DNA of 63,644 nucleotides, filler included, from Folioceros fuciformis (lineage: Eukaryota): assembly GCA_049999805.1 (NCBI GenBank). It is 16 parts of 16 records of this genome, joined end to end, with 100 filler letters (N's around TTAATTAATTAA, not from the genome) between each part and the next. Parts side by side here need not be neighbours in the genome. Positions count along the whole stretch, not along the records: positions 49,026 to 56,857 come from JBNGIO010002975.1; 15 more parts are not named here. One strand, given 5' to 3'. The notes under the pieces are model-generated. The model was not told the DNA's origin. It saw only the letters and a list, made by a program, of their open reading frames with translations, and did no database searches. Below, in pieces: positions 26,623 to 62,420 of this stretch. Made by a program: the position numbers and the translations under genes. The stretch's first letter is position 1, and every line of letters starts with the position of its first letter.

Positions 26623-26634
26623 TGGTATCAGAGC
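26623..26634 (+). promoter_or_regulatory. PBS complementary to initiator tRNA-Met
   Basis: TGGTATCAGAGC; also at 29602, 38075 and 53643 (+) and at 34333-34344 and 50967-50978 (-). Confidence 0.92.
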
Positions 26635-29426: not shown

Positions 29427-32164
29427 TGTAAAAACCCCTAGTTCCTAATCCTAGTTCCTAGTTTGGTTTTGGATAGTTTCAGTTTACTTAGGATTATTAA
29501 AGTTACAAGCGGTTATTTAACCGTCAACTGAATATATATAAATGTTGTTCACGAGAAATAAAAAGCATGAGTTTTTCAAGCAAGAGTTCTGTTTCCGCTC
29601 TTGGTATCAGAGCCTCATAGATCGAGCGAAGCCGCACGATCGGAGCTGCGACCAGTGCAGTGCCCATTCAGATCAGGGCGCCCTGCGCAGCATGACATGT
29701 GGGAGGCGATTCTTGCTTGATCACGGTTCAGATTTGTTCGCAAGATCCACGTGTGCCGTAAGCTCAGCCTCTGCCCAGCACTCATCGGCTGTGCAAGAAT
29801 CTGGGCGCAGATCACACGATCGGCGGTGCAAAGTGGCTTGCAGCAATCTGAATCCTGCTCACTCAAGTCCAGGCAGGCACGATTGCGGTGCGGCGGCCTG
29901 CAGCAACGTGCGCCCTCGGCTGTGCAGAGGCTCAAGCAGTAGCAGTCGGGCGCAAGAGCGAGCAGCGGATCAGTACAGCAGCGGCGCGCGCGTGCCATCT
30001 TTGGTGGCTCCGGGCGGTCGCAGGAGAGGCGGCAGCTGCAGGAGCATCAGAACCCGCGGCGCAGGCTCGCAGCCGCCTGGGCACCACCGCGCGCCCAAGG
30101 GTAGCCGCGCCGCGTGTGCAGCGGCCTGTGGCGTAAACGGCCTAGGCTGCCGGTGCGCGGCCTGTGCTTCACCCTGCCCAGCAATCTTGCAACATTGTAG
30201 GCGGCATCCGACCGAGGCTTTCGGACCTGTTGGATGTTTTGGAAACTTCACTCCATACTTCTGACTCGGCATCCTCTGGGTTTACAAAGGAGCGTCCAAC
30301 AAGTTCGTTTGCTAGCACTTATCGATCTGCATCTGTACAGTGTGAAACACCTCAGCGTCCTTCAAGTGATCCCGATACTCAGGTTAGGTTGTGAGGTGTA
30401 TGCCTCCTCGAAGCAAGGGAGTAATTCCAACTCCTCCACCACCTCCACCTAAGCACAACCGTCACCCTCTAGTCAATAAATCAACAAACATGGCTGGAAA
30501 TATAGTGAACAACAACTACACAACCTTTGATTTTAAGGAGCGTGATAGATTTGCGGGAAAAGACTTTGAGATCTGGGAAACCAGAGTAAGAGCTATCTTG
30601 GAAGATAAGGATTTGTGGCCTGTCGTCAGCGGGAGCAAACTGAAGCCGGTACCTGCTGATGCAGCAAATCCTACTGCAGCAGAGACCCGTGATATTCAAG
30701 CCTGGGAAGCCTCGGACAGGAAGGCAAGAACGATCCTGATGCAAGCTTTAACAACTGAGACTATGCATCATATCTTAAGCACAGAAACATCCAAGGCTGC
30801 TTGGGATCAGATCAGGGCCAGCTACGCTTCAAAGGACACTCTGTCCTTAGTTCTCACAACCCAGCAATTTTATCAACATAAGATGAGTGATCACGACACA
30901 GTTGACAAGCACATCACTCAATTTCGGTTGAATAGAACAAAACTAGCATCTATGGGAACTGTAATTACTGAGGAGCATGCAGCTGTAATCCTGCTTGCTT
31001 CCTTACCAAGCAGCTGGTCTACCTTCATCACGTCACAACAATCAAGGATAAACCTCACCTTATCCATGGTCATTGCAGCCATGTATCAACATGAAACAAC
31101 TAAGCGCATTAGTTCAGGTGCGTCATCAGGTGGAGAGGGAGGAGCCTTGGCAGCAAAAGGACGGTTTCAAAGGTTTAACAAACCGTGGCAGAAAAAGGAT
31201 CAGCAAGGACAAGCATCTCAAAATCCAAATAAGCGTTTTCACAAATGCAGCTACTGTAAAAAGCCTGGACATTATTGGAAGGAATGTAGGAAAAAGAAGT
31301 TTGATGATCAAAAACGTGGAGTGTCAGTAAACAACAAAACCTCACACTCTCCTCCTTCCAGTTCTCCGGGCTGTTTCATAGTCACATGTAACTTGACCTC
31401 TGATTTTGATAGTTCATGCTGGTTTCTTGATTCTGGGGCTTCAAGCCATTTTTGTTATGATAAGGAGATTATCTCAGACTATGTAAAATTTGAACCTCCT
31501 AGAAGAGTTGCTTTAGGAGACAATCGAATATGCCCAATACTGGGAGAGGGCACTGTAACGCTGGAGCTGACCTCAGGAGCGCACCTTAAACTTCATCCAG
31601 TGTTGTATGTACCAGCGCTCACAAAGAATCTCCTTTCTACAATAAGCTTAGGAGATTTAAAACTTTATCGGGTGGTGATAGAAGATGATGAGGCTACTAT
31701 AAGTCTCAAGTCGTCACCTGATCAAGTACTTATAAGAGGACGCCCAGAAAAGGGTTTAGTTCTGTTGGACGTCAAGTCCATAAAAACCACACACTTACGT
31801 GTTAAAGTCACTCAAACTGATGTCAATTTGACGAAGTTGTGGCATCGGCGATTGGGACATCCATCCATGCGTAAGCTGCAGCAGTTAGTCAACAACGACC
31901 TAGCTCTTGGAATTCCCAAGTTCACAGTTCATCGGGGTGATCACTGTGAGCCATGTATATTAGGTAAGCAGGAAAAACTTCCTCATCCTAACAGTTTATC
32001 CAAGACCACACGTGTATTGGACCTGGTCCATACTGACGTGTGCGGACCGATGGAGTATAAATCAATTGGTGGCAGCAGCTACTTTGTAAGTTTCATCGAC
32101 GATTATAGTAGGTTCACCTGCATCTACTTTCTATCGGCTAGGTACCAAGTATTCGACAGATTCA
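29427..32164 (+). mobile_element. Copia family A, copy 3 (5' LTR 29427-29601, PBS 29602-29613)
   Basis: Nearly identical to copy 2; inserted after CCGTC in a Gypsy LTR. Confidence 0.95.
30400..32164 (+). CDS. gag-pol: Copia-A Gag-Pol, 3'-partial
   Basis: Same protein as 27421-29184 apart from one D/N change and the absence of the 1-nt deletion. Confidence 0.92.
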
Positions 32165-37861: not shown

Positions 37862-40091
37862 TAAAGAAGTATTGAAGAGTAGTCTAGGGTAGCTGCCTGG
37901 ATAACCAAATAGGAAAACAACCTAATTTTATATATATTTATATATATATATATTCATAAATAGTCCTAGATATTAATAGTCACGTGAACATGAACGCCAA
38001 CGATTTTTAATCGTTAGCCGCATGCTATGTAAACGTTTCATTCATAGTAAAATGTATCTTTGATGAATTCTAAATGGTATCAGAGCAGGTTCTACAATGA
38101 TTGGTGATCAGATGGTGTTTTCACGCACCATCGCTGAGCGGACCGCGCTTACAAACAAGACGGTTCAAGAAGCTTGGGAAGATCAAATTTTTCTAACCAG
38201 TTTTTTTTTTTTTTCATTGGCGCACGTTGGCGCACACAACAACGTTTAGGCTAGTTCAAAGTTGAGTGAGTCTCATCAAGATTGAATCGGGTGCCAAGTT
38301 TGGAGATGTACCAAGAACAAGATGGAGTTTGGCAGACGCGATCTGTCTGTGAGGTCGGATTTATCTATGAAACAAATCTTAGAAGGATTTGAACGTTTGC
38401 CTCATGCATCGCTTTATACTCAAAAATAGAAGCCTTGCATCATGTTCCAAAAGAGAGATGGCGGATGTAGTTAAAGAACTTAAATCCGGCACCAAACTGG
38501 ATCAAGTACACAATCTTGTGAGGATTTTGCAGACACAAGATATCATGCTGGAGGATTCCAGACCAGCATGCCCTAAATCAGGAGAGCGAATAAGGGGCAG
38601 AACTCCTGCCTGGTTGACCAAGGACCCCAATAAACCGAAATCAAGGTCGGAGTCTCATTGATTGTGGACTCCTACACTTGCGGGATCCAAACTGCGTCCC
38701 ACTGCAAAGATGGCTACTACATCAATTAAATTAGACCTTAAAGATAAGGATAGATTTGTTGGACACAATTATGATGCCTGGGCCCATCGCCTCAAGACTA
38801 TTCTACAGATAGAAGACGTCTAGGATGTGGTCAATGGCACTATTGCAATTCCTTCTGGACAGGCGGCTACGCAAACAGACATTGATGCATGGAAGAAGAG
38901 GGACTTACGAGCCAGAGCAATTCTAGAGTTGGCGATCGATAGTTCGATGATTCACCACATCGATGACGTCGATACATCGCATGAGGCTTGGACTGCTCTA
39001 AGCCAGATGTTCGCTACAACGAACCAGTCCTCACTCGTTCATGCAACTCAGTCCTTCTGGAACTGCAAGATGAAGGACGGTGAGAGCGTGGAAGATCACG
39101 TTATGCGATTTTGCCATCTACGTCAAAAATTGGCATCTGCAGGCACCAAGGTTACTGAATTACAGGCTTCCGTAGCACTATTAATGTCACTCTCGGAAAA
39201 ATACCGGGTCTTTGTGAGTACACAAAACAGGAATCTCAGATCTATTGTAGCTGGAGCAATCTCCTTGTCTAACACAATAGGTGCCCTCCTAGAGGAGGAG
39301 GCAACACTTACCTCGTCCCGGCAGCATGCTTCACAAAGCAGTAGAGCCCTCTTCTCATCGAGTGGTGGTCATGGCTGTCAAGGAGGGCGCTATGCCCAAC
39401 GTGGACGACGAAGAGGCATGTCTTTAGGGTTTCAGACAAACAAGCGCATCATCTGTAACTGGTGTAGAATACCTGGGCGTGTAGAGAATGACTGCAGGAA
39501 AAAGAAAGCAGGTGAGCCAAGGAAACCTGCACAAGGAGAAGCAAACATGTCAGTTAAGATCAAGAATGCATCCACGATACTGGCAGTTTACCTTGCTCAT
39601 GCCAAAGTGGAGAGGAATCGGTGGTTTGTGGATTCCAGAGCGTCCACAAATATCTGCCACAGTAAAAAGGATTTCTCGACTTATACTAGCATGGACCCAT
39701 GACATTATGTCCTCCTAGGCAATGAAAGTGGCTTACAGATAGCTGGAGTGGGAGAAGTTCCCTTACTCTTGGCGGATGGATCAATTCAACATCTTCGAGA
39801 GGTGCTCCACGTTCCACAGATGAGAAAGAATCTCATCTCCGTAAGACAAGTCTGTAAAGATTGGGGTGTAAAGATTGAATTTGATGATGAAACCTGTTGG
39901 TTAAGAGATATGGCCTCAAAGGAGATCTCGATGATTGCAAAAAGGGAGTCCGACCTGTGTCTGCTTGATTGTACATCTGCAAAATCCTCACAAGCAGCTC
40001 ATGCATATTTGGGGGTCAGGACTCGGCAGAATGATGCCACTTACATCTGGCACTGTAGACTAGGGCACCCTAGTCTCAAACGCATGGAGGC
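37862..40091 (+). mobile_element. Copia family D: LTR 37862-38072, PBS 38075-38086, ~620-nt leader, degenerate gag-PR from ATG 38710
   Basis: MATTSIKLDLKDKDRF, CNWCRIPGRVENDC, WFVDSRAS, WHCRLGH. Confidence 0.88.
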
Positions 40092-43864: not shown

Positions 43865-45967
43865 CACGCAGAGCTCAAGTCCGTGAGCCGGAGAGTCGAA
43901 GGAGCCGAGAGAAGGGTTTTAGAGCTCGAAGAATTGCAACGGCAGCGAGACGCTGCCCAGGCAGGGCTTGAGGAGGTGAGACGGAGGCTTGAAGGAGACG
44001 AGAGACGACTTCTCGAGTTGCAACAGCAGCGCGACGCGGCTCAAGGGGAGCTCGAGGAGATGAAAAAGAAAGTGGAAGGAGGCGAGAGGATGGCTCTCGA
44101 GCTGAAAGAATTGAGAAGGCAGCGAGACGCTGCTCAACGAGAGCTTGAGGAGGTGAGAAGGAGAATGGAAGGAGAGCTCGATGCTGTTCAAGCCGAGATG
44201 GAGGATGTGAGGAAAAAAATGGGTGGAGAGCTCGATGAGCTCAGGAGGAGACTGGAAGGAGAGCTCAAAGAGATGAAGGAGAAATTGGCAGAGGAACAAG
44301 AAGCCAAGAAGGCGGTGCAGCCTAGTGAGGATCCAGTGCCTCAGGCTGACCAGTTGCCCGCGCCGCAGGGCAATGTGACTCTTGCTGATCACCTTAGCAT
44401 AAGGCAACCAGGTCTTAGTGTCAGACGGTCAGAGTCGGCCCTCATGCTGGTTCAGGAGATCCACAAGCTTGAACATTTACAGGACGAGCTTGGGGAGGAT
44501 GCAGGTCGGGCTCTGGAGGCCCTCCAGAAGGAAGTTGAATGCTTGCGTTTAGCACAGTCTGGCATGAACGAGGATGCAGCTGCTGCCATATCCAAGCTTC
44601 GGTCGGAGATTCAGTCTATGCACTCCCTCAGGACCAACCCAACCCGGTCCGGGCAAGGAAGCTCTACTCTTGCTGTGACTCCTGTGAGCATGAGGAAGTC
44701 CATGCACCAGGAGCTATCCAGGTTGCAAGCTCTTGGGGAGGAGAAGTACAACACTGAGGCAACCATTGCCACCTTGGAAGCCCAGCTGGAGAATGTTCAA
44801 ATATCTCTGGACAAGTTGCTAATGGAATCAGTGCCGGCATCACCAGTGGCCTCCGAGGAGGCCTCACCAGCAGCACCTTCTTCTGCAACTCCGTTAAAGA
44901 AGAAGAAAACTATGCCGTTTGGAGTGAGCGGCAACATTAGGTACAGATTGCTGGCGGGCAGCCCGCCTTGCTCCCCAGGCTCACCTGGCACCAGGAGGAG
45001 TGAGAACAACGAGAACGTTCCTCCTCCATCTCCTCGCACACCCAGCAACAACACCAGGTCTCACGGCAAGGACGGAGATGGATCCAAGGAAACCCAGAAG
45101 AAGAAGAATTCTGTGGATGTGCGCAAGATGCAAAATCTGTTCAAGACCGCAGCAGAGGAGAACATCAAGAGCATTCGGGCCTACGTGAGCGAGCTCAAGG
45201 AGCGGGTCTCCAAGCTGCAGTACCAGAAGCAGCTACTAATGTGCCAGGTGCTGGAGCTGGAGGCCAACAAGTCAGTTTCCAAAGAGCTGTCCCCACAGGA
45301 AGACAAGGACGCAGGCGCAGTGGAGCTCCATCAACCAGCTGCTGCTCCCTCCCCGCAGGCCCTGCCATGGCACGCCCAGTACGAGATGCAGCGCAACCAA
45401 ATCATCGAGCTGTGGCACATCTGCCAGGTGTCCATCATCCACAGGACCCAGTTCTACCTCCTCTTCAGAGGCGACCCAGCAGACGCCATCTACATGGAGG
45501 TGGAGTTGCGTCGCCTCTCATGGCTGCATGAGAACGGTTCCGACCCATGCATCATGAACAGCCCCAATCCCAGCTTCAGCCCCAGCCCGATCAAGAGTCT
45601 GTTCCAAGATGAGCAGGGCACTCCACTGTCTGCCAGCGCCCGTTCTCTTCGACGGGAGAGGGAGCTGCTTGCCCGCCGGATGCGCACCAGGCTGACCATA
45701 GAGGAGAAGGAGGAGCTATACTTCCGGTGGGACGTCCCTGTCGATTCCAAGCAACGCAGGTTGCAGCTTGTGCAGCGGTTATGGACCAGCTGCGACCTGG
45801 ACCATGTCCAAGCCAGCGCTGAGGTGGTGGCCAGGATTGTGGGTTTCTGGGAGCCTGGCAATCTGCCCTCCAAGGAGATGTTTGAACTCAATCTGACTCA
45901 CCCAAACCAGCAACGACAGTGGATCGTCAATGGCCTGAACTCGATCTCAAACCTGCTAAACCTGTAA
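43865..45967 (+). CDS. NACK1: Kinesin-7, NACK1/HINKEL-like (NPK1-activating kinesin), stalk and C-terminal domain; 5'-partial
   Basis: EIHKLEHLQDELGEDAGRALEALQKEVECLRL, VDVRKMQNLFKTAAEENIKSIRAYVSELKERVSKLQYQKQLL.CQVLELEAN, IIELWHICQVSIIHRTQFYLLFRGDPADAIYMEVELRRL (DUF3490-like), SKEMFELN, ISNLLNL*. Confidence 0.88.
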   Translation, partial: HAELKSVSRRVEGAERRVLELEELQRQRDAAQAGLEEVRRRLEGDERRLLELQQQRDAAQGELEEMKKKVEGGERMALELKELRRQRDAAQRELEEVRRRMEGELDAVQAEMEDVRKKMGGELDELRRRLEGELKEMKEKLAEEQEAKKAVQPSEDPVPQADQLPAPQGNVTLADHLSIRQPGLSVRRSESALMLVQEIHKLEHLQDELGEDAGRALEALQKEVECLRLAQSGMNEDAAAAISKLRSEIQSMHSLRTNPTRSGQGSSTLAVTPVSMRKSMHQELSRLQALGEEKYNTEATIATLEAQLENVQISLDKLLMESVPASPVASEEASPAAPSSATPLKKKKTMPFGVSGNIRYRLLAGSPPCSPGSPGTRRSENNENVPPPSPRTPSNNTRSHGKDGDGSKETQKKKNSVDVRKMQNLFKTAAEENIKSIRAYVSELKERVSKLQYQKQLLMCQVLELEANKSVSKELSPQEDKDAGAVELHQPAAAPSPQALPWHAQYEMQRNQIIELWHICQVSIIHRTQFYLLFRGDPADAIYMEVELRRLSWLHENGSDPCIMNSPNPSFSPSPIKSLFQDEQGTPLSASARSLRRERELLARRMRTRLTIEEKEELYFRWDVPVDSKQRRLQLVQRLWTSCDLDHVQASAEVVARIVGFWEPGNLPSKEMFELNLTHPNQQRQWIVNGLNSISNLLNL

Positions 45968-46260: not shown

Positions 46261-46859
46261 ATGTTCGTGGGCGGAGGTGTGAAGAATTGGGCAAAGAGGT
46301 CATACAAGGTTCTTCTCGAAACTGTTGGAGTTAGGAGAGTGGCTTTGCGGGCAGTGGACCATGTGGATGAGCAAGGTATGGTTTGGAGTGACGTGCTGTA
46401 CCGGCGGATGCAGGACTGCTTGAAAGAGAGGAACCTGGGAGGTGGCAGAGAAGTGCACTCCCTTATTGTTGCAAGTGGGTTGGAGGGCAATTCTTTCTTG
46501 GGCAGCCATCTCATCCGTATGTATGCAGCTTGTGGGAGCTTGGCGGAAGCAAGTGCGGTGTTTGAGAAGCTACCTTGCTTGGATGTGTATGCATGGGCTT
46601 CCCTAATTTCAGGTTATGGAAACCAGGGAGGACCTGAGCAGGCTTTGAAGTTGTACTACAGGATGCGGGAGTCGAGTGTGCAGCCCAATGAATACGTGTT
46701 CGTCGCTGCCCTCAAGGCCTGTGGCAGCATGGCAGCTCTTGCCGCTGGCAAGTTGATTCATGCTCATGCCGTGGAAAGTAGTTATGAGTGTCATGTATTT
46801 GTGGGGAACACTCTTATCGATATGTATGTGAAGTGTGGGAGCTTAGAGGATGCACGTAG
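46261..46859 (+). CDS. PLS-class pentatricopeptide repeat protein (organellar RNA editing factor type), 3'-partial
   Basis: GREVHSLIV...LIRMYAACGSLAEA...AWASLISGY...QPNEYVFVAALKAC...GKLIH...VGNTLIDMYVKCGSLEDAR. Confidence 0.92.
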
Positions 46860-49025
46860 NNNNNNNNNNNNNNNNNNNNNNNNNNNNNNNNNNNNNNNNN
46901 NNNTTAATTAATTAANNNNNNNNNNNNNNNNNNNNNNNNNNNNNNNNNNNNNNNNNNNNAAGTGTGAAGTGCCAATAGCTCCAGAATCCCGCGTGCCGAC
47001 TCTTTGATTGGCTCCCAGCCTGCACACGATCCAATCTCATAGCATTCAGAAGCAACCTGAAGGACGGGCCAAACGTTGCCTGAGCGAATCAGGGGCAAGG
47101 GTCCCTCAGCCCTTGGAGTAATGAATGCTTTCGAATTCTCAGGAAGGGACATGCTAGCTTCGGGTGGGTTGTGGTACCGGGATGGTCCCTCCTTCCTGGA
47201 TTCCTTCCCATGCGGTGACATAGGACAGGAGCACTGGATTCACAACATTTACTGGCTTCCCGGCTTAGGGGAAGGTGTAGTTTGTCAGCTAAGGCAGGCG
47301 GAGAAGGAGAACGAAATGATCTTCAACCAGCTACCTTCCCACCTACTGCTGCAATAGACAACCCAAGCTCAGTCTTCGTCGGTCGTGATCAGAGAGCGTG
47401 ATGCCAGGACGGGAACCTTGAAGACCATCCCTTGCGAATATTACAAATGCATGTCGAATATTCTCTGTATTATAAATATAATATTTTCAGGGAAACAGGA
47501 CAGCGAGCTAGACATCTTGAAGCTCATCTCTGCACACGTCCTAGATAAGAGATGTGGCGGAAAACGCGTCTGGAGAGGTAGGTGGCACAGCTGTTGATGC
47601 TGAGGGGCGTGAAGACTTGCAGTCAAGTCCAGAGGTGGACGTTATCTGGAATGGCCGGCCTTCGTCCCATGTTATCCTCAGGACTGTGCCCCTCAGCGGC
47701 TGAGCCCGGATGTGAAGCATACCGCCGCTGCACAATGCCATTTGGCTGGGATGAACCCGAGGGCAGCACCTGGGGTGGCTTCTATCCGCTATCTTCTTCG
47801 CCAAGGTATGTGGTGCAGGAAAGTAGGTAGCAAGCTAGCCCCATCCTTGCAACCCTGGCCTAGGGATTGCAGACCGGGCTCAGCACTGTCCTCCGTGCGG
47901 ACTTTCTTCACAAGTCCGTGCACCAGTCCGTTGATGCCTTCGATGTCCAGCTAGGAACTTCTGTTCCTGATTCGCAAGCTCCACCGAGCTCATCTTTCTA
48001 TGCTAGTTCCTCACGCCAGTCCATCATTACTAGAGACGCTCCGGCTCTAGGTCGCTCAGCTAGAGACAAACCTCGGAAGGCTACGAGCGGAGCCCGTCGA
48101 AGCCACAAAGGGAGAGTGCTCTCTGCTGCCCTTGCTCGCGTGAGCTTCCCTCGTGGCCTCGAATTGCTAGAATGCAACAAGAATTGACGGAGGTCATCAC
48201 TATCTAAGAGGCAGCCTTCTGAAAATTGGTGAATGTTCATGCCCTACTGGCCAAGAAGCAGCGTCCTACAAATTTGAGAATGTTCGTGAACTACTGGCCA
48301 ATAAGCAGTCTCCAGTCCTTAGCCCTTCCTGTATTCAGCGCCTCAAAAGCCGCAGAGAGTATCTTCAAACTACATAATTGGTCCCAATTCGATCGTGTGC
48401 TTTGCCAAATGTCGTGTCCCGGTCCCTGGGACAAGGGATGGCCTACCTCGCACGCTTGGAAGTTGGTGCCTGAGGTGCCGCGCCCGAATCCGTGCCAAGG
48501 AGGAAAGGGAAGCCAAGGAAAGTGGGGAAGCGAAGAGAAGGGGACCAAACGAACATTTGGACCCTGGGAAAAGGAGCCTATTGACCTTAGTGGGCTTTAT
48601 CATAGAGCGAATCTTGGGCGTGAATTTGCATGAGAAATAAAGTATGTAGTCCTTGTGAAGATATTATTGATAAGGCTAGCCTCAACCGTCCACACACGGA
48701 GCACAAACCGAACCAAACGAGCAACCAGCGTGCCTAGTTTAGAAGGAATGGTAAACTAGGACTTGGAGTATGTAGTGTCCTGTGAAGCGGACGAGTGAGG
48801 GAAGGCAGCGAGCCAAGGCGAGATAGAATGCGATGCGTAAGTAGTCGGTCCTGTCTGGATAGGGACGATCATCATGGCATTCAGGGGCAGAAGATGACGT
48901 TGTAGTTGGTGCCATGGGCGCAGTANNNNNNNNNNNNNNNNNNNNNNNNNNNNNNNNNNNNNNNNNNNNTTAATTAATTAANNNNNNNNNNNNNNNNNNN
49001 NNNNNNNNNNNNNNNNNNNNNNNNN

Positions 49026-51241
49026 TGCTGAAATCATCAATGAAGGAGACATAGTAGTGGGCTCCTCCAAACGATGCATTCTGTGAAGGACCCCATACAT
49101 CAGAGTGTATCAATTGCAAAGGTCTCGAGCTGTTCTGCACGTGTTGCACACATGGAAACCTTGACTGTTTTCCAAATTGACATGCAGAACACACATGACC
49201 AAGATCAGCATACTTGAACTTGGGCAATCCTTCCACCACGCTTTTCTGTTGCATAGATTTCAACTTCTCTATGTTCACATGCCCAATCCTCTTATGCCAT
49301 ATTTCAACATCACGTATGGCGCCTGCATCATTTGCAAACATTGCTGCATTTAGCTCTGGAATGGATGCATCCAGAGTGAACATCCGTCCATTCCTACTAC
49401 CTTTAGCAATCAGTTTGCGCCCTCTGTCATATTCTTCAATAAAGCATCCATCTTTATTTAATCGAACCTGTAGATTTTGTTCAGCCATCTGTCCAACAGA
49501 CAACAGGTTCTTCGTAATGGTTAGAACATGCAACACATCTTGCAGACTCTTCTGCTGACCATTTGGCATCCTAAGAGGAACAATTCCTCTGTGCTTTATG
49601 TCATGTTGTGTATCATCTCCTGTACACACATGGCCATGAGGACCTGCATCCATCTTGTTAAACCACTCGCCATGCGGAGTCATGTGGTTTGATGCTCCTG
49701 AATCAATGTACCATCTCTCATCATTCTGCCCATCCTGTGCAGACAGATGTTGCATGGCAAACAACCTATCCTGGTCATTTCCAGCATTACTAGAGGAGGC
49801 ATAGTTCCCATGCTGCCTTCCTTTTCCTCTCATGTCTACTTGCTGCTTATAGCAGTCCTTAGCAATATGACCAACCTTACCACAGTAGTAACACTCCTTG
49901 TCTCTATTGGAATGGTCATGAGATTGAAAAGAACCATCTCTTCCTCTTGTGGCTCTACCTGCGCCTCTAAAACTTCCAGATTCTCTCTGGTCTTACGCAT
50001 TTCCTCCACGCCAATTGTCTTGCTGATTTTGCGTGTTCCGAGCATCACCCCATCCTCGGAATGAACCACGACCTCTATGGCCTCTCCCACGCTGGTTAGA
50101 AAACAAAACAGTGTCTCTCCCTTGAGATATACCTAAACCTGTGTTCAGACCAAGCTTAACTTCCTCATGCAGCAACAAAGCAACCAATTCATCCCAACTT
50201 GGGAACTCAACTCTCATAGAGATTGATGTGTCAAAGGACTTGTACTCCTTGCCAAGTCCGTTCAGAGTAACTGCAACCATGTCATCTTCCGTCACACTTG
50301 CACCGATTGTAGCAAGCTGATCAACTATGGTCTTCACCTCTGTTGTATACACAAGTATGGATCTGGTACCTCGTGACAAGTTGTTGAACTGCTGCTTCAA
50401 CTGGATTTTCCTAGCATGTGTGACATTTCCATAGTTCCTCATGAGAATGTCCCATGCATCCTTCGGAGACTCACATCCCGTGATCTGTATGACCATAGCA
50501 TCTGAAATGCTTAAGGAGAGCCAGTGTAACACTTTACATGCTCTCTCAGTCCAATGCTTGTGAGCAGTCTTTTGCTCCTGTGATGGAGTACGATCCATCT
50601 CTAGTTCACTCTCTTCACCTGTGAAGAGGTCCCAATAGCCTCTACCTACCAAGAAGTTCTTCATCCTGAACTTCCACAAAGCAAAATTCTTGTTATCCAA
50701 CTTCTCTCCAACGACCTAAGAGATATTGTCTGATCCCTGCATATTAGCCATGATTCAGGCTCCTTTACGCTCCTCCTGAGTCTCTCTCCCTCTCGCGCCT
50801 CTTGCGCGCTCTTGCGCCTGTAGCGCCTGTTGCGGCTTCCTACGCCGCCTACGCCGCTGCGCCTCCTGCGCCTCTCAGTGGCTTGCGTTGCCAGCCACAT
50901 TCACGCTCACGGCCATAGCCTCAAACCCCCGCCATAGCCACCGGTGGCACCGGCACTCTCTCTCTGGCTCTGATACCATGTTGAAATAGCACCACAGGCT
51001 AAGAAGGACTCCATAGTTCCTTACTTATGGTGCATAGGATGCTACATATATAGCCTTCAGGCGGGGCAACCCTCGATAAGGTAAGCCTTGGTCTCGAGGG
51101 TGCAATATCCTAGTATATCCTGATAAATCCTGATATAACAGTTAGGTGATAGATAACTACGAGTTCAATATGGGATAATCTACACTATCCTAAATGTTGT
51201 ATGCTCTTAATAACAATTCAGTTAGAGCTTGATTTCTAACA
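49026..51241 (-). mobile_element. Copia family J: LTR 50979-51241 (TG..CA), PBS 50967-50978, degenerate gag-PR-IN from ATG 50751
   Basis: KLDNKNFALWKFRM, WYIDSGASNHMT, WHKRIGH, LIHSDVWGP; one stop near the gag start and a frameshift in gag. Confidence 0.9.
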
Positions 51242-52419
51242 CACTTCAGCTCACACTCCTGCACTCCAGCAGCTCACACTTCATGTCACTTCACTCCAAC
51301 ACTTCCTCACTTTGATTCAGCTCACCCCTGGAATTTAGGACACAACATCCTCGCTCCTTGCAGTCTCCAAGCACGGGTGTGGGAACTAGGACTGGATAGC
51401 CCTCCTGGCTCACGGCCCTGTCACTTCACTTCAGCTAGCCTGCAAAATATTCAGCCATTGCGAATTCGGCCACACGGATCTCAACAGTCTTGGGATCCAC
51501 CACGTCCCCCTAGTGGCAAGGGGAATCAAGCCCTTGGTTCAATCTCAACCGGCTCAGCCTCTAGGCCGGGAGTTTGCACACAAGGTCAAGGGAAATCACA
51601 CGGTAGACCCCCCTCCTCAATAACAAGTCAAGCCTCTTATACTACCTTGGCCCAAACCTCCATCTCTGTCTACTAGGGTTAGCCTTAGTCACCCGCCCAG
51701 CAATCTCTCTCTGTCCTAAGCCACCCCTAACTCTGACCTAATAGGGGTTGTCTCCCTTGGATACCACTAGGTGCCCTAAACCCCTTACCAAAATTGACCA
51801 ACCTCTCAAGACTACCAAAATGGTTAGTGCCTCTCAACACTCTCCTTCTTCTCTCAGATCATTCCATCCCTTCCCTTCATAGCATCCTGCAACCCTTCAG
51901 AGCCTCCACCTCTTCAGGTTCGTTCAGCCCCCACGCTGCTGGTCTGGTGCCCTTGAGGGGCCTGGGACTTGAAAGTGACATTCCACCATTTGGCTCCCCG
52001 CCTGCGAGCAACACGTCTGTATTCAAACCTTCCGCCTGCTGGCGGCTCGTAGGAGGGGTGCGCTGCTCAGGCCCCAATCAGTGCAGGGTTGCGTTGCAGG
52101 GCTCTCGAGTGCATTGGGATCTGCCAAGGTTGACTGTTCCATGCCCCACATAACCATTGCTCCTTCGCATGAATCTTCTGCCAATTGCCCAATCCATCCT
52201 CCCCCTTCCAACCCCAGCAGGTTCTGCAACTCGAGCCCCCAGCATCCCCTCCTGCATAAATGCCTTCAACAACGAAACCTGGAACACCAGCCCCCCAGTC
52301 GCACTTGTCCACTCGCCCTCAATTCGACACCTCCCTACAGCGCTATCATTGATAGAGGCCTTCGCTATCACCTGGTTTTGGATCGGGCAGTCGACCTGTG
52401 CTTGCCCCGTGGCTGCCAC

Positions 52420-53360
52420 TACTAGCCAGCCGGCCGCCCTGGCTTGCCTACCTTCTGCCGATTTGGCCGGCCAACCAGCCAACAAGCTTGGCACCCAATC
52501 AGCCCCGCCTGCCTACATGCTGGCCCCCCAGGACCACAGCCGGGTCCGACCCCGACCCGCCAGGCCTGGCTATCCAAACCTGCCTGGGCAAACAGCCAAG
52601 CCGCCAGGATCCGGCCAGACCGTGCTCCACCCCACCGCCATGGCCCGGCCAACCAGCCAGCCTCGCTGACCCCTCCACAACAGCCCCCGATCCGGCTTCT
52701 GCCGCCTGTTTGCCTTAGCCTACAGTGCCCTGCCTTCGACCCTGGTAGCCGCCCGCCTGGCCTACTGAATCCGGCGGCTACTGAGCCACCTGCCGGCTTC
52801 CCGATTTGGCCCCCGGCTGCCTAGCAGCCAGGTCGCTTGCCCACCACGATCCAAGCCAGCTTGCCTGGCTGCATGGATCCCGTCATCCCGCACTGCCGAC
52901 CCTTGCTCGGGCTCTTGCAGCCAACCCACCGCCCGACTTACAAATTCGGCCCCGGCTTGCCATGCCCAGAGCGCCCTGCCGACAACCCGCCTCCGGCGTC
53001 CCGCCCGGCCGACAGCGCCCGCCTGGCCGGTACCAGGCTACCTGTCTACAGCCGGGCCAGATTGCCTGCCTGCAGCCATGAGCAACCACAGCCAGCCCGG
53101 GCGCCCAGCCGTGCCTCCTACACTCCGGTTGGTCGATTTGCCCAGCCAGCTTGAATTTGGCTGGCCGCCAGCCTGCTTAGGCGTTCAAGCCAGGCCGCTG
53201 CCTAGCTTCCCAATCCTGTTGCGTCCTGATCTGCCCCTATAGCTAGCCTACGGCCGCCTGACTTGAGCCTCACCTGCTAGCCTTACCAGCCAGCCAGCAC
53301 GGCATGGATCTGCCCGAGGCCCACCTAGCTTGGATCTAGCGCCGCTGTCTGGGCTGCTTG
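52420..53360. repeat. GC-rich low-complexity region (CCGGC/CCTGCC/CCAGCC microrepeats), probably internal to an unidentified retroelement
   Basis: Strong C skew on the + strand; many overlapping Pro/Ala/Arg-rich ORFs without recognisable domains. Confidence 0.45.
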
Positions 53361-53844
53361 GTTCAGATCTACCTCTCGTGAGTATTGGTAGGATAAAATA
53401 GGTTTATTCATATTATATATCCAGCATTTATAGTAAATAGGCCTAATTAAATACTAAGTGGATTTGCAACGTCACACACAAGGGTTGGCGTCCCAAACTC
53501 AAACGTCGTGCCTCTACATTCACAGGACGTAACCGTTAACGTACTATAAGAAACCACATGGTCTGAAATAAAAATATCTCTTCTACTTTCACTCTCACCT
53601 TGCCAGATCTCGATCTCCTTGCCTCCTCGATCCTAATCTTTATGGTATCAGAGCGGTGATGGAGGACGCGTCGCCACCGCGCGACTGTGAAACCTGTAAG
53701 AGTAACAACTGCACCCGGAATCTCAGCCATAAAGATTTCTGCGCTGCGATCTCTGCACTCCGGGTCTCACTCATCAGGTTTGGCGCGATGGCCGATGCAA
53801 TTCTAGCAGATGTAGTCAGCCACTACTACGACTGACTGCACGCT

Positions 53845-54411
53845 ATGCCGAGAGCGCGAGGTAGAGGCAAGCAGCCCCCTTTTGATCTCCTTTCTGGCCG
53901 CCGCCGTGCTCCAGAGGATGTTCACCTGCAGAACTTGCATCGTTTCTTTGACACCCACTACAATCTCAACCCTCCGCACACGCACAGCAATCATAAGCGT
54001 CAGTATAAGCGTTGCAACGCACAATGCTGTCAGCAACACCAGAAACCAGATCCACTAGCCTCACAGAGAAGTCAGATTAGGCAATACATTCAGAACGCAC
54101 GCACAATCTCTGAGCAGAGATCACGCGAGTTTGTACGTTCCAAGTCCTACGACTTTAATCCATATCCAACACCAACTGATGTCATTTTAGCAGAGACATC
54201 TTTGAAGAATACTATTCAAGTGAATTCCTCTGACAATGAGACAAACATGTCGCTTCAAATCTTGATTGCACCGGTTCAGGTTTCGGGTCCACCTGTTCAC
54301 ATCTTGGAGCATACACCTCTCATGAAAATGATTGAGGCAATTCGAGCAACTCATCTTTGCTGCACTGAGCATGCAAGGCCGCTCGGGTATGGTACTACTG
54401 AAGTCTTGTAA
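53845..54411 (+). CDS. Copia-E extra ORF upstream of gag (188 aa, unknown function)
   Basis: ATG-initiated; basic N-terminus and His/Cys cluster; stop 8 nt before the gag ATG. Confidence 0.55.
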   Translation: MPRARGRGKQPPFDLLSGRRRAPEDVHLQNLHRFFDTHYNLNPPHTHSNHKRQYKRCNAQCCQQHQKPDPLASQRSQIRQYIQNARTISEQRSREFVRSKSYDFNPYPTPTDVILAETSLKNTIQVNSSDNETNMSLQILIAPVQVSGPPVHILEHTPLMKMIEAIRATHLCCTEHARPLGYGTTEVL

Positions 54412-54419
54412 AATTTTAC

Positions 54420-56424
54420 ATGTCAGGAAAGGGAAGGGGTACAGACACATGCAAGCCAAAGGGCATAGGTAGCAGTAGAGGCAACTCACCTCCTACAGAC
54501 CCTTCAGACCCACTTTCCATTTTTTCCACTTCATCTTCACAAGGCAGTAGTACATCTAGGGTAGATCCAGCCCTTGATCGCATTCAAAGAGCCCGACAGA
54601 AAAAGACACGAAAGAAACAGGCTGAATTAGTAGCAGCAGCACTTGCAAATCAAGTTCTAGCAAACATGGCAACAGTCACTCACCTGAAAATAGATTTCAA
54701 AGAAAAAGATCGCTTCTCAGCTTCCCAGTTTGACATTTGGTCACTTAGAGTCCAGACAATCCTAAAAGAAAATGGCCTGTGGGGGGTTGTCACTGGAACT
54801 GTACCTAAGCCTGCAGCTGCTACCTCGACTGCTGCACAAATCGAGGCTTGGGAAAAACTGGACCTAAGAGCACTTGGAGTGATCCAGTCCGCACTGGATG
54901 GATCTATGATGTCTCACACTCAAGACGTGGAGAACACCAAAGAGGCATGGGACTCACTAACACACACTTATCAAGTCAGCAATGGCTCATCTCTAGTTGG
55001 AGCAACAAGAGCATTCTATACTTGTAAGATGCATGAAAATGAACCAGTGGAACAACATGTGGTAAAGTTTCGACAGCTACGATCCAAACTTACCTCGAGT
55101 GGGACGAAGACCACAGAGATGCAGGCAGCCGTTGCCCTCCTTCTCTCTCTTCCTCCCAGTTACCGCACTTTTGTAAGCAACCAGAGTTCGGCATTAAGAC
55201 TTGCAGCACAGAATGCTCAGGCAGGTCAGCCACCGGATGTTACACTTGCGGATGTAATTGGTGCTCTTCTCGAAGAAGAGTCAACCAGAACTGTTAACCT
55301 AGGTGGCACCTCCCGAGGAGAGTCTTCAACAAGGGCACTGTATGCAAACAGGGGTCCCAGAAGACACCCACCACGGCAGTCCTGGACACCAAACAACAAC
55401 ACTGCGTTTAAGAAACGTCCAGCACAAGCTGCATCAACCAAAAAGAAGGGACCCTGCAATTGGTGTCTCATACCTGGCCATTGGGAAGCCGACTGCCGCA
55501 AGAAAAAGGCTGGAGAGCCCAGGCGTGTGCCACAACCAGCATCTAATGTGGTACAACGTAAGGGAAACCCTATCCTAGCAGTATGCATGGTCTCTACCGC
55601 GTCAAACAAACACGTATGGTTCATAGACTCAGGTGCATCTGCACATATCTGTCATTGCAAGAAATCCTTCTCTGAATACAGGTCTATTTCACCTGGTCAG
55701 TTCGTTCTTCTTGGCGATGACAGCGGCCTACAAATAGAGGGCACCGGGTCAGTCCCAGTTATGTTGAGTGATAGCACCACACTAGTGCTAGAGGATGTGT
55801 TGCATGTACCTTCTATGGTGAAGAACCTTGTCTCAGTCTGCAAGTTGACTTCACAGCACACATTGAATGTTTCCTTCACTGGTCTTCAGTGTCTAGTCAC
55901 TGACCCTAAGCACAAAAACAAAGTGTTAGCGAAAGGAACACCTCTCCACGATTTATATCAACTCAACATTACCTCCAAATATGGTCTTCCTCTTGCACAT
56001 GCACAAGTCTGTGCCAGCCAGGAAGCCAAGCAAAAGGATGCTGCTATGCTATGGCACTGCAGACTGGGCCATGCCAACTTCGAAAAAATCAAGTGTATGG
56101 TGGCCAGCACAACACTTTACAGAGAAAAGTTTGTGCTCCAGTCAGCTGAGAAGCAGTTCTGTGAGGCGTGTGTTTTTGCCAAGCATCAACGCCTTCCATA
56201 CTCGGATGATAACCCAACAAGGGCAACAAAACTACTGAAGGTTGTACATACCGATTTATGTGGCCCAATGTCCACTGCAACCCTAGGAGGTGCGCTGTAT
56301 ATTCTCTCGTTTGTTGATGACTGGAGCAGGTATGTCGTGGTTTACCTGCTCAAGAACAAGAGCCAGACTCTTGGATGCTTTAAGGAATATGTATCTTTTG
56401 CCCAGAGGCAAACTGGAGAGCAGT
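54420..56424 (+). CDS. gag-pol: Copia-E Gag-Pol, 3'-partial, with an ~80-aa N-terminal extension
   Basis: KIDFKEKDRF, CNWCLIPGHWEADC, WFIDSGASAH, LWHCRLGH, VHTDLCGP. Confidence 0.92.
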
Positions 56425-56957
56425 NNNNNNNNNNGTGGAAAACCCTGCACAAATCTCCACCTCGAGTGTGCCAGCTCCAGCTCTTCCTCGGCAGACTGTT
56501 TCCTGGCAAATTACTGCAGACTGCACATGACTGACGGCAGCGGAGAATCCAAGCACAGAGAACCATCGCCAGGGCAAGGACTACAGCAGCAAGCTCCGCC
56601 ATCGACTGGACGCAGTTGCGGGCGTAAAGCAAAGAGTTCGAAGAAATTTCCAAAGTGCTGAATTTAAATTTTGAAAGATGCAAGGACGTAAGTCCGGGAG
56701 TAAGCCGTTGAGAAGACTTCTTCGAAAAAGCTGTACGAAGCCCGAACCTGGCGAGATTCCTTCAATCTGTGGTTACGAAACCTAACTAGGATAATGCTGG
56801 CTAAGTGGGAGTATTGGTAGGATAAAATAGGTTTATTCATATTATATATCCAGCATTNNNNNNNNNNNNNNNNNNNNNNNNNNNNNNNNNNNNNNNNNNN
56901 NTTAATTAATTAANNNNNNNNNNNNNNNNNNNNNNNNNNNNNNNNNNNNNNNNNNNN

Positions 56958-58049: not shown

Positions 58050-58368
58050 GTTGTAACCGCCCAACCACCTCAACCACCTAGCCTATATAAAGGCTTGTAC
58101 TTTACTTCATTATAATTCAATTACATTCTAGGATTTGCATCTAAGAGCAAGGCTAGATTTTCATCATTGTATTAGAGCTTCTTGCTCTACATTATGCAAG
58201 TGCAGCTTCAAGCATCTAAGGAGCGCATCTAGGAGGCATTTTTCTAATCTAGCACTTAGCTAGATGGATTATGCTTCTTCTAAAATTGTTGCTCCTTCAT
58301 GCTTTCTTCTCATGCGAATATCCCTTTTCTAATAATGCTTCTATGTACTAATTCTTCGTCCCCTCTTT

Positions 58369-58953
58369 ATGGATTTGATTTCTTTTAAAAGGAGGAGGCC
58401 TAGAATTAAGAAAAGAGATTGCCCTCCAAGACAGCAAAAACAAGTTAGGATCAAGAATACTAGAAGCAATGGAAGTTCACATATTATAGCAGGAGAGATA
58501 GTTGAAATATCTTCTTGCATAGCTAACTTCATTGCATCTATCCTAATTTCTAGACCAGATCAAGGGAAGGTGATTAAGGTACCTAGACGTGATTTGCTAG
58601 AAGTATTTGGCCCCATTTATATTAAAGCCTTAGAACTAGCCATCCAACATATTCCCAATTTGAGAGCTGGTACTAACACTCCTAAATTTTCTTGTCTGCA
58701 AGGCCTAAACATAGAAACTCACAAACTTGATGACCTAGATAGAGAATTATCTTCTCTAACAATCCAACATCTTGATCTCAAGAGAAAATTAACAAAACTT
58801 AGGACAAAGGTATCCATTCTCTCTAAGTTCAAACATGTGCATGAATTTTCAAGTAAGTCATCATCTCCTAATGCAGGTTATCGTATAAGGGAGGAGTTTC
58901 GAGCTCGCAATAGAGAAGATGAAAAGTTGTACCGTCGAGGCTTAGTCCTCTAA
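58369..58953 (+). CDS. Copia-F extra ORF upstream of gag (194 aa; basic NLS-like N-terminus, coiled coil)
   Basis: Long ATG-initiated ORF in AT-rich DNA; KRRRPRIKKR; LDDLDRELSSLTIQHLDLKRKLTKLRTKV heptads; stop 10 nt before the gag ATG. Confidence 0.6.
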   Translation: MDLISFKRRRPRIKKRDCPPRQQKQVRIKNTRSNGSSHIIAGEIVEISSCIANFIASILISRPDQGKVIKVPRRDLLEVFGPIYIKALELAIQHIPNLRAGTNTPKFSCLQGLNIETHKLDDLDRELSSLTIQHLDLKRKLTKLRTKVSILSKFKHVHEFSSKSSSPNAGYRIREEFRARNREDEKLYRRGLVL

Positions 58954-59440
58954 ATCACCTTCTATGGCTGGAGTGTCTAATATTGAAGAAGAAATTTCAA
59001 CGTCACCAAATACACCCATGATGGATCCTTCTGGGAGTTCTAATCATACCTTGATTAATCATTATGGTGATAGCTTTAAAGAGAAGGATAGGTTCAATGG
59101 AAAGAATTATTATGTTTGGGCTATACGGATGAAAGGAGCCTTGCGACAATGAGACCTCTGGGAAATAGTTGATGGAAGACTTCCCAGACCCACTGAAAGA
59201 TTTGAAGCACACCTTTGAACTTCCTGGGACGTCAGGGACGAGAACGCACAAGACCTTATCATCAGTGGACTTTCGGAGCAAATGGTGATACAGGTAGGTC
59301 ATGCAAAGACTTCCCACGATATGTGGACTCACCTTGCTCANNNNNNNNNNNNNNNNNNNNNNNNNNNNNNNNNNNNNNNNNNNNTTAATTAATTAANNNN
59401 NNNNNNNNNNNNNNNNNNNNNNNNNNNNNNNNNNNNNNNN

Positions 59441-61354
59441 TTCATTGCTAAGGTATTCCAAAGCGTTATCACTTCTAAGTTTCTTCAGTGTACGTCCAGT
59501 TTGGGTTTCTGCCATTTGTACATAGTCGACAAACTTTTCATAGGTTTGGTGACGGTGATGCAGAAAATACAGGTAGTAGTAGTGACTCCATTCGTCAAGG
59601 AACAGCAAGAAATATGTGGCGCCACCAAAGGAGGTAGTCGACATTGGCCCATAGATGTCTGAATGCACGACATCCAACAAACCTGCTGCTTTGGTGGGCT
59701 CTGGATCATTGTATGGCTTCTGTGCCATTTTGCCAATCTGGCAATCTTCACAAAAAAGGTGATCCTGTACTTTGAAAGAGATTGGGTCTTTGTATAATTC
59801 TGGGTTGCTGATTATCTGACGAATGTACGTGATGCTCGGGTGACACAATCTGCTGTGCCAGAAAAAGCTCTTGTCAACATCTGATTTTGCGTCAACTACT
59901 AAACCACGAGGTTGTGCTACAGTAGTATCGAATTGATACAAGTCATTGTAAGTGATTCCTTCTCCAAGTATTTGAGAATGGTTGTTTGCTGATGTCACCA
60001 CACAGCCTGCTGGTGAAAAACATATACGCAGATCATGGTCTGCTACAAGTTTCCTCACTGATAACAAGTTCTTCGTCATGCTAGGTACATGGAGGACGCC
60101 TAAGAGCAGAATTTCCTGTCCCCCATTGAGAGGAAACAGCACATCTCCATAGCCAGCAATAGCCAAACCACTATCATCGCCAAGTAAGACGAACTGGCTG
60201 GTTGGCGCCGACTTGTAAGTGACAAACTTGTCCTTCAATAGGCAGATGTGATGTGTGGCTCCTGAATCCAGGAACCACATGTTAGTATCAGCTTGTGTAA
60301 GGGATAAACATACCGCGAGAATGGTTGGCGGCTTGGCAGCTATCTGTGTGCCATTGGTCTGTCCACGAGTCACTACATGTGACTCTGCACCGGGAGGTGC
60401 ATCACGGCGAGGCTCTCCGGCTCGCTTCTTCCGGCATTCTGATTCGAAATGCCCCGAAATTTTGCACCAATGACATGTGCCTTTTTTCTTCAGACCAGGA
60501 TTGAAGGAGGAGGGTGCTGTATATGGTCGTCCTCGTCCACGACCTCGCCCTCGACTACGTCCTCTGAAGGTGTAGAGGACTTGAGAGGTATATTGTTGAC
60601 CTCGTCCAGTAGCAATTCTGCTGGACTCTTCTTCCAAAAGCGCACCAACCACTTGTGATAAGGTGACTTTCGCTCCTGCTTGATGTGTGAAGGATGTTTG
60701 CGTAGTAACAAAAGCTCTGTAGCTTTGGGGCAGTGATGTAAGGAGGACAGTCACTGCTTGCTTCTCCGACAAGACCTCTCCACAGGATGATAGCTTGGCG
60801 CGCAAGGTCCTGAACCTGTGCATGTGATGCTCAACGCTATCATTATCTTTCATTCGGAGACCATAAAGTTGTCTTGTAGCATTAATGAGAGACATGCCAT
60901 CCTTGGCTGCAAACATGTCCTTAAATAATGTCCAAATCTCCGCAGCAGTTTTCTGCCCTAAGGTATGTTGGATCATGTTTCTGTCAAGAGTAGCAATTAG
61001 GATGCAGCGTGCTCTTTTATCTTGCTTTGTCCATACTTCGATCTCTGCTGAAGTGCCTTTAGGTGTGGCTATTGCTGGATTTGTTATCTTGCCAAGCACT
61101 ATGTCCAACAGATCGTGTTCATCGAAGATGGACTCCATGCGAAGTTCCCAAATTGGGTAATCGGTTCCATTGAACCTGTCTTTGTCCTTTATGTCAACCT
61201 TAAAAGTGTTGTTAGTATTGTTTATTACAGTGTTTGTGGCAGTGCCACCACCTCCTCCACTGCTACTTCCACCACCTCCGCTACCAGACATGATTGGTTT
61301 GGGTGGCGTGTGTCTACGAGGTTCTCTAGGCAACCTGTGTGGAGGAGACCACAT
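59441..61354 (-). CDS. gag-pol: Copia-G Gag-Pol, 3'-partial
   Basis: KVDIKDKDRFNG, CHWCKISGHFESEC, WFLDSGATHH, WHSRLCH, RSDNALEY. Confidence 0.92.
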
Positions 61355-61974: not shown

Positions 61975-62420
61975 GGTGTAACTGCCTAGCGTCTATCCTT
62001 CCGTGCTCTCTGCCATTTGCTGAGTGCTTGCCAATACTGCTTCAGAAGGCTGATGTAATTGTTCTTCTCTTCTTCTGTCCAATGTGCATTGATGGGAGGT
62101 GCAATCCACGTTGGATGCGATACCATAGCATGCTCCATGCTGCTGAAGTTCAAGAAAGTAATTTCCTAATAGTAGTCCCAAAAGATCTAATCCTTGAGAT
62201 GACTGTAATCACAGATCGCCTAGGGTTGGGTTACTCTGCACATCAGATGTTGTAACTTTCCAAGTAGATGGTGCAGATCCCATACCATAGGGGATCCTGA
62301 TATTGTCCATGGTGCTCTGANNNNNNNNNNNNNNNNNNNNNNNNNNNNNNNNNNNNNNNNNNNNTTAATTAATTAANNNNNNNNNNNNNNNNNNNNNNNN
62401 NNNNNNNNNNNNNNNNNNNN

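Follow-up and report, generated by a model that had tools for sequence, protein, structure and literature searches.

Extra open reading frames (ORFs) are widespread in long terminal repeat (LTR) retrotransposons and are functionally unexplained; the kind that lies 5' of gag has been described for Ty3/gypsy elements. Such 5' ORFs are reported from Tekay chromoviruses and Retrosat2 (PMC11728184; PMC3485330), and the account of the Tekay 5' additional ORF (5'aORF) describes proteins with a nuclear localization signal (NLS), alpha-coils and disorder, and with no similarity between species (PMC11728184). For Ty1/copia, the section of Neumann et al. 2019 on extra ORFs counts only those of at least 250 codons, present in 582 elements and falling into 45 dissimilar groups, and the 3' ORF of SIRE is the sole Copia lineage-typical one that it names (PMC6317226). 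Vicient and Casacuberta 2020 place extra ORFs mostly between pol and the 3' LTR (PMC7264820), and the figures given for a common bean survey are 2 of 65 Copia families with extra ORFs, both 3' of pol (PMC4093653). Here we analysed a stretch of 63,644 bases from Folioceros fuciformis (the window), in which a Ty1/copia element that we call family E carries a 188-codon ORF between its primer-binding site (PBS) and gag. Our literature search found no Copia lineage described with a 5' leader ORF as a trait; since the standard survey cut-off is at least 250 codons, ORFs of this size in the leaders of Copia elements would be missed. An initial annotation of the window had named the Ogre 5' ORF and the SIRE 3' ORF as the known cases, which agrees with the literature except that 5' ORFs also occur in the Tekay chromoviruses and Retrosat2.

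The window is made of 16 contigs, each 1.1-8.8 kb long, with N44-TTAATTAATTAA-N44 spacers between them (for example 56858-56957). Family E lies on the contig at 49026-56857, which holds a 10-N gap at 56425-56434, and its parts are as follows.

53380 to 53642, plus strand: 5' LTR (about 263 nt), the first 49 nt of which recur at the contig end
53643 to 53654, plus strand: PBS, TGGTATCAGAGC, of initiator tRNA-Met type, exact match
53655 to 53844, plus strand: upstream leader, 190 nt, with 4 AUGs opening upstream ORFs (uORFs) of 58, 15, 3 and 1 codons
53845 to 54411, plus strand: leader ORF, 188 codons plus TAA (ATG at 53845, TAA at 54409-54411)
54412 to 54419, plus strand: spacer of 8 nt from the ORF stop to the first gag-frame ATG
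54420 to 56424, plus strand: gag-protease-integrase ORF with Pfam domains, interrupted by the 10-N gap
56435 to 56857, plus strand: 3' end piece, consisting of a non-coding tail, a purine-rich tract and 49 nt of the 3' LTR

The product of gag matched Retrotran_gag_2 (PF14223) at 2.6e-28, as a copia-type Gag does, and Pol_BBD, gag_pre-integrs and the start of rve (the last below the cut-off) followed in one frame; a match to DUF4219 in Gag was weak and also below the cut-off. Judged by these domains, family E is a Ty1/copia element. The domains compared run from Gag to integrase, as the reverse transcriptase (RT) of E and of families F and G introduced below lies outside the window, and the RT/RNase H region of E falls at the 10-N gap.

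Leaders, taken as the DNA between PBS and gag, are visible in the window for seven families (A, D, E, F, G, H and J). An ORF of at least 165 codons was present in 4 of the 7, and all four have a Gag with the motif [FIL]K[ED][KR]DRF. The corresponding features of the other families with this type of Gag are listed here.

58167 to 58178, plus strand: PBS of family F, degenerate, with 2 mismatches
58369 to 58953, plus strand: leader ORF of family F, 194 codons, isoelectric point (pI) 10.5, with KRRRPRIKK at residues 7-15
58964 to 59340, plus strand: start of gag of family F, with two in-frame TGA stops, ended by the contig edge
61477 to 61974, minus strand: leader ORF of family G, 165 codons, with a Cys/His-rich N-terminus
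59441 to 61354, minus strand: gag-protease-integrase ORF of family G, ended by the contig edge
26563 to 27285, plus strand: leader ORF of a fourth family (A7), 240 codons, with a second copy at 29542-30264
38087 to 38709, plus strand: leader of family D, 623 nt, with ORF pieces at 38306-38392 and 38404-38661 in different frames

The ORFs of E, F and G and their distances from the gag ATG (8 nt in E; 10 nt in F, to 58964; 122 nt in G, from 61974-61477 to 61354) were found as the initial annotation had given them, and the family with the longest ORF, A7, was absent from its list. The A7 ORF starts in the U5 part of the LTR and spans the PBS (26623-26634), with 135 nt between its end and gag; it shares the frame of gag, but its own stop and 5 more in-frame stops lie between the two. 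The families do not form one locus, E, F, G and D each being on a different contig. The broken leader ORF ascribed to D could not be verified: pieces of 28 and 85 codons are indeed present in different frames, but the length of the 85-codon piece is within chance (184 of 2000 shuffles). The gag of D contains one stop and one frame change. The F leader ORF is intact at 37% GC, while the adjacent 125 gag codons hold the two TGA stops.

The distance from the end of the PBS to the ORF ATG was 190 nt in both E and F, and the leaders of E, F, A7 and D measured 765, 785, 786 and 623 nt. In G, nothing matched the tRNA-iMet word with 2 or fewer mismatches, and the closest PBS candidate (62117-62130, minus strand) has only TGGTATC in common with it; the start of the G leader is therefore a guess. 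An alignment of the leaders of E, F, D and A7 over their initial ~200 nt revealed no conservation beyond the PBS. Frame translations revealed no leader ORF of that length class (at least 165 codons) in H or J, which have other types of Gag; the H leader (~215 nt) is too short, and that of J is ~780 nt long, with no minus-strand ORF of at least 50 codons either.

With respect to the Gag start that these families had been said to share, the KDRF type is common to them, but the preceding FK is not found in G (IKDKDRF) or D (LKDKDRF). In copia Gag this motif belongs to the region that Pfam calls DUF4219. Identity over Gag, protease and integrase was 41% between E and G, 43% between E and D and 33% between E and A7, with an overall range of 28-43%; the short piece of F Gag was 24-33% identical to those of other families. 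Since the layout recurs in the deeply diverged F and G, these comparisons suggest that the gene slot is old and that its protein evolves too fast to be recognized between families.

We compared each leader with 2000 dinucleotide shuffles of its own sequence, scoring ORFs of the observed length. This length was reached in 3/2000 shuffles for E, 0/2000 for F (longest shuffle ORF, 112 codons), 1/2000 for G and 0/2000 for A7. Over the ORF span the other five frames contained 4-14 stops in E, 4-25 in F, 7-15 in G and 5-9 in A7, and the ATG followed the preceding in-frame stop by 3, 11, 6 and 0 codons, respectively. The leader ORF is thus a real and recurrent feature; as the initial annotation proposed, the ORFs are non-random and recur at one place in deeply diverged families with one type of Gag.

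Coding character was assessed with a codon score that contrasts in-frame with off-frame composition, trained on the Copia ORFs of the window with the tested family left out and compared with 2000 stop-free Markov sequences of the same dinucleotide make-up. The E ORF (z 2.95, p 0.0005) scored in the range of E gag (z 3.14, reached by 0/2000 null sequences) and of a host pentatricopeptide-repeat (PPR) gene (z 3.05, p 0.001). The F ORF scored lower (z 2.31, p 0.011), and the scores for G (z 1.12) and A7 (z -1.08) were not significant. Base composition by codon position differed in E (chi2 p 0.007), with p 0.06 in F. By composition the E ORF is gene-like and the F ORF moderately so, and the two are probably coding.

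The boundaries of the E element were derived from a repeat: the 49 nt at 53380-53428 recur as an exact copy at 56809-56857, behind the purine-rich stretch, which places the start of the 5' LTR at ~53380 and makes the piece beyond the gap the 3' end of the element. The contig ends after these 49 nt of the 3' LTR. The LTR boundaries are accurate to within a few bases, and the LTR does not begin and end with the usual TG..CA; one contig of the Logan assemblies described below begins at 53383, near the LTR start. A TATAAG at ~53546 in the 5' LTR is a putative promoter element. No long ORF was present in the 3' piece at 56435-56808, the gap hiding most of pol and what lies downstream. Most plant Ty1/copia lineages are stated to use tRNA-Met (PMC6317226). 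We take the PBS word TGGTATCAGAGC to be the complement of tRNA-iMet.

An alternative in-frame gag ATG is present in E at 54666, where the Gag proteins of D and A7 start, and its context (aacATGG) is much better than that at 54420 (tacATGt). We kept 54420 as the likely gag start because the 82 codons between the two ATGs have a coding score of z 2.80 and because the resulting start, MSGKGRG, is similar to an internal MSGSGGGG of G Gag. With this start 92 residues precede the KDRF motif in E, compared with ~30-50 in F, G and A7.

To place the E copy among others we used DNA runs of one sample, in the form of Logan contigs. A contig of 1065 nt, recovered from two runs, corresponded to 53847-54911 with 4 differences and 0 gaps. 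Its word depth reached 98.9 and 64.9 in runs of 323 million and 290 million letters, respectively. A depth of 99 would be possible for a single-copy sequence only in a genome of ~3 Mb; there must therefore be many near-identical copies of E, and family E is young, multi-copy and recently amplified. As the contig at this depth is gapless, the ORF belongs to the family consensus and the recently multiplied form carries it. No indel inside 53845-54411 was among the 12 of 23 indels listed. Because the family is young and uniform, however, intactness alone is no evidence of selection.

Three further observations were made on these reads. In run X3, from the same sample, 190 C>T and 236 G>A changes were among ~478 changed places over 53380-56424. 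This pattern is the signature of a bisulfite-type library, and to judge from the many unconverted cytosines the element would be methylated. Depth rose to 379 at 53890-53991, compared with ~100-200 on either side, and loose ends of unrelated GC-rich sequence flanked 53896-53928; another repeat or organism therefore has ~30 nt in common with the first part of the ORF, which is GC-rich. A run that we guessed to be RNA contributed a single 74-nt piece, from the zinc-knuckle region only.

The proteins predicted from the four leader ORFs are all basic (pI 8.9-10.5) and hydrophilic and have basic clusters, KRRRPRIKK in F being one. That of E has a pI of 9.5, is hydrophilic and has an Arg-rich N-terminus (RARGRGK). 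The single-sequence AlphaFold models of E and F predicted only helices. None of the domains known from extra ORFs that we looked for, the plant mobile domain (PMD, PF10536), Transposase_28 and the Athila ORF-1 domains, was matched by E, F or G in Pfam. The G protein was searched in Pfam alone and matched 0 families, and F gave a chance-level match to FtsL_2 only.

We give an even chance to the reading that the E ORF is a genuine, fast-evolving, element-encoded 5' additional ORF of Ty1/copia, a counterpart of the 5' ORFs of Tekay, Retrosat2 and Ogre. A body of results weighs against it. The E protein matched 0 Pfam families, none of 12 candidates was scored, an all-length HMMER search found 0 matches of any length among 1.84 billion representatives, and the best E-value against the PDB was 1.2. 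For F, 0 of 106 candidates were scored in a word-indexed search, and the E, F and G proteins had no similarity to one another. The models of E and F were poor (mean predicted local distance difference test score, pLDDT, of 43 and 47), and the Atlas recognition values were 1210 for E and 1577 for F, when 2300 was reached by 91 of 100 proteins of known families. The G and A7 ORFs lacked gene-like codon composition. Both full-depth differences between the E ORF and the Logan contigs change an amino acid (Y39C and N131S). In A7 and A8, the only copy pair available, 6 of 8 differences fell in the leader ORF, 5 of them non-synonymous and 1 synonymous; their gag differed by 1 substitution in 1764 nt. 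Finally, a sister family of E (Logan depth 44.5 and 29.9), ~82% identical over 54726-55360 in gag, aligned to E only up to 53862, which is 18 nt into the ORF, and then again from 54726. Conservation at the 80% level therefore does not extend to the body of the ORF, and on this alignment E is hypervariable there and at the N-terminus of Gag.

Translation adds a difficulty of the same kind. The region from the PBS to the ORF AUG contains 4 AUGs in E and 7 in F; for G, in which no PBS was found, 3 were counted in the part of the leader inspected. Nine further AUGs lie inside the E ORF; simple scanning would thus reach both the ORF and gag inefficiently. A coupled uORF reached by scanning would be expected to open with the first leader AUG, which the ORF AUG is not. 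Folding of the E leader RNA did not differ from that of shuffled sequences (z -0.07, 20 shuffles). The translational coupling to gag put forward in the initial annotation is conjectural: the ORF stops 8-10 nt from gag in E and F alone, the distance being 122-135 nt in G and A7, and four AUGs precede the E ORF. The gene-like composition in E and F supports the accessory gene that it proposed.

If the E ORF is an accessory gene, it would be transcribed within the genomic RNA from the 5' LTR, and the protein that it encodes would be small, basic and hydrophilic and would consist mostly of helices or disordered parts. The protein might act in trans on the RNA or particle of the element, for example by nucleic-acid binding or nuclear targeting, functions that have been proposed for the Tekay 5'aORF proteins; it would probably be nucleic-acid binding or nuclear-targeted. 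Gag might be translated by ribosomes that re-initiate past the ORF stop, or else from another RNA, separate or processed. A stronger form of this reading is tentative and, in our estimate, doubtful: that the ORF is a third gene slot fixed in a plant Ty1/copia group, ~165-195 codons long, beginning 190 nt after the PBS and ending beside the gag AUG, which encodes a basic fast-evolving protein, has been kept since the families diverged to ~30-40% Gag identity, and has gag expression coupled to it.

Among other explanations, it is unlikely that the ORF is a non-functional relic, that is, the leftover of a captured or once-coding sequence, or a lucky frame in a young family, neither translated nor selected. 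Such an origin would account for the failure to find homologues of E and F in the searches above, for the G and A7 ORFs that are not coding-like, for the D leader without a long ORF and for the upstream AUGs, and the youth and uniformity of E make its intactness uninformative on this point. Four independent rare events would be needed, however (3, 0, 1 and 0 of 2000 shuffles), and all four ORFs occupy the same place in sense orientation, and in each the open frame begins almost directly with the ATG. A relic would also hardly be expected to stay intact in AT-rich sequence, as in F, beside a gag with two stops.

The main rival, which we likewise consider unlikely, is that the ORF is a long uORF indifferent to its peptide, kept open to carry ribosomes to the gag AUG by termination and re-initiation, or to tune gag output, while the peptide drifts. 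The 8- and 10-nt gaps between stop and gag ATG in E and F, the fixed 190-nt distance from PBS to ATG and the similar leader lengths speak for this explanation; the lack of conservation between families, the poor models and recognition values and the mostly non-synonymous changes between A7 and A8 also fit it. The longer gaps in G (122 nt) and A7 (135 nt) do not, nor does the position of the ORF AUG behind others in the leader, and an unconstrained frame would not be expected to have the gene-like codon make-up seen in E and F. The leader RNA, no more structured than its shuffles, gave no sign of a special RNA device, and ribosomes normally re-initiate poorly once they have translated an ORF of nearly 200 codons.

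The idea that the ORF belongs to the N-terminus of Gag, from which an assembly error has detached it or to which programmed frameshifting or readthrough links it, is very improbable, for although the ORF adjoins gag and the N-terminal extension of E Gag is unusually long (92 residues before KDRF), the independent Logan assembly had 0 gaps over 53847-54911, the gag frame is closed by a TGA at 54399-54401 so that the frames could be joined only within 54402-54408, a 7-nt window in which no slippery heptamer was seen by eye, relative to the ORF the gag frame is shifted by -1 in E and by +1 in F and is unshifted in A7, there behind 5 more stops, and the all-length HMMER search returned no match of any length.

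Relatives of these elements were sought more widely. Among longer proteins, the nearest relatives of E Gag-Pol were 24 matches at 23-32% identity, mostly from plants and green and streptophyte algae, with one fungus and one metagenome-assembled genome labelled cyanobacterial; at this level of identity, E has no close relative in that protein database. A metagenome scan with the Gag alignment gave 238 pattern matches and 0 relatives, and viral contigs gave 115 matches and 0 relatives. With the protease-integrase alignment, 80 metagenome loci were kept, at 26-36% identity; we rejected them as members of the clade, since 0 of 80 had the KDRF-type Gag motif, and assigned them to other Copia lineages.

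These loci served as a rough background. An intact gag with at least 800 nt upstream was present in 18 of the 80, the other 62 being dropped, and in 3 of the 18 an ORF of at least 150 codons lay within 900 nt upstream of gag, none of them in a leader. The first (L001) proved to be pol of a tandem upstream copy, the second (L023) was a low-complexity frame, and the third (L016) ended 330 nt upstream of gag with the PBS at 69 nt upstream, placing it outside the leader. The L001 metagenome contig (1692-8167) carries two tandem copies of a Copia-like ORF, which encodes Gag, protease, integrase and the start of RT, followed by a C2H2-type zinc-finger tail in place of the rest of RT.

Ty1/copia pieces were present on most contigs of the window, and nearly all contigs were retrotransposon-derived; in a shallow assembly repeats assemble best, which explains this make-up. 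On its own contig, family E adjoins a Copia element with a different type of Gag (49026-53379, minus strand), which has an exact PBS at 50967-50978 and a leader of ~215 nt. A GC-rich (~59%) stretch of ~2.4 kb upstream of that PBS is probably its LTR. One contig carries two host-like genes, at 44060-45967 and 46261-46911. Reading them by eye, we presume the first, a long coiled-coil protein with 635 uninterrupted codons, to be a NACK-type kinesin tail and the second a PLS-type PPR protein.

If a Copia group does have a 5' ORF of conserved position, a 5' gene slot arose in both superfamilies of LTR retrotransposons. The element would then offer a compact system (less than 600 nt, 8 nt from gag) for studying how gag of a plant retroelement is translated behind a long ORF, and orphan basic proteins such as these would have to be considered as candidate RNA-binding or anti-silencing factors encoded by the element. 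Should the ORF do no more than deliver ribosomes, a long uORF would here have stayed open although its peptide is not conserved, which would be unusual.

Plant pararetroviruses such as cauliflower mosaic virus have a long leader with multiple AUGs and ORFs that lie a few nucleotides apart. The likeness to E is in layout only and raises the same question of how a downstream ORF is reached; unlike the virus, E has no evident transactivator gene or shunt hairpin. Within Ty1/copia, the env-like ORF of SIRE (Sirevirus) is likewise an extra and highly heterogeneous ORF, reported for 74% of SIRE elements and falling into 19 mutually dissimilar groups (PMC6317226), but it lies 3' of pol, whereas the E ORF lies 5' of gag. 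Ogre, of the Ty3/gypsy Tat lineage, resembles E in having a lineage-typical extra sense ORF, ORF1, 5' of gag (PMC6317226). It differs in being a giant non-chromovirus, and the same survey gives 57% as the share of Ogre extra ORFs that carry the plant mobile domain PF10536 (PMC6317226).

The closest likeness is to the Tekay 5'aORF (Retrosat2 ORF0, RIRE3/RIRE8 and sunflower Tekay group 2), which as described is also a sense ORF between the 5' LTR/PBS and gag. Its proteins, in the accounts drawn on here, share with those of the window the lack of similarity between families, a biased composition, basic or NLS-like clusters, few helices and long disorder. In sunflower, 500 of 523 Tekay elements are reported to keep the 5'aORF (PMC11728184). 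The sunflower protein is given as ~400 amino acids long (PMC11728184), compared with 165-194 here, and Tekay belongs to Ty3/gypsy and E to Ty1/copia. 5' ORFs as such are known from Ty3/gypsy, and what is new in family E is a 5' additional ORF in a Ty1/copia element.

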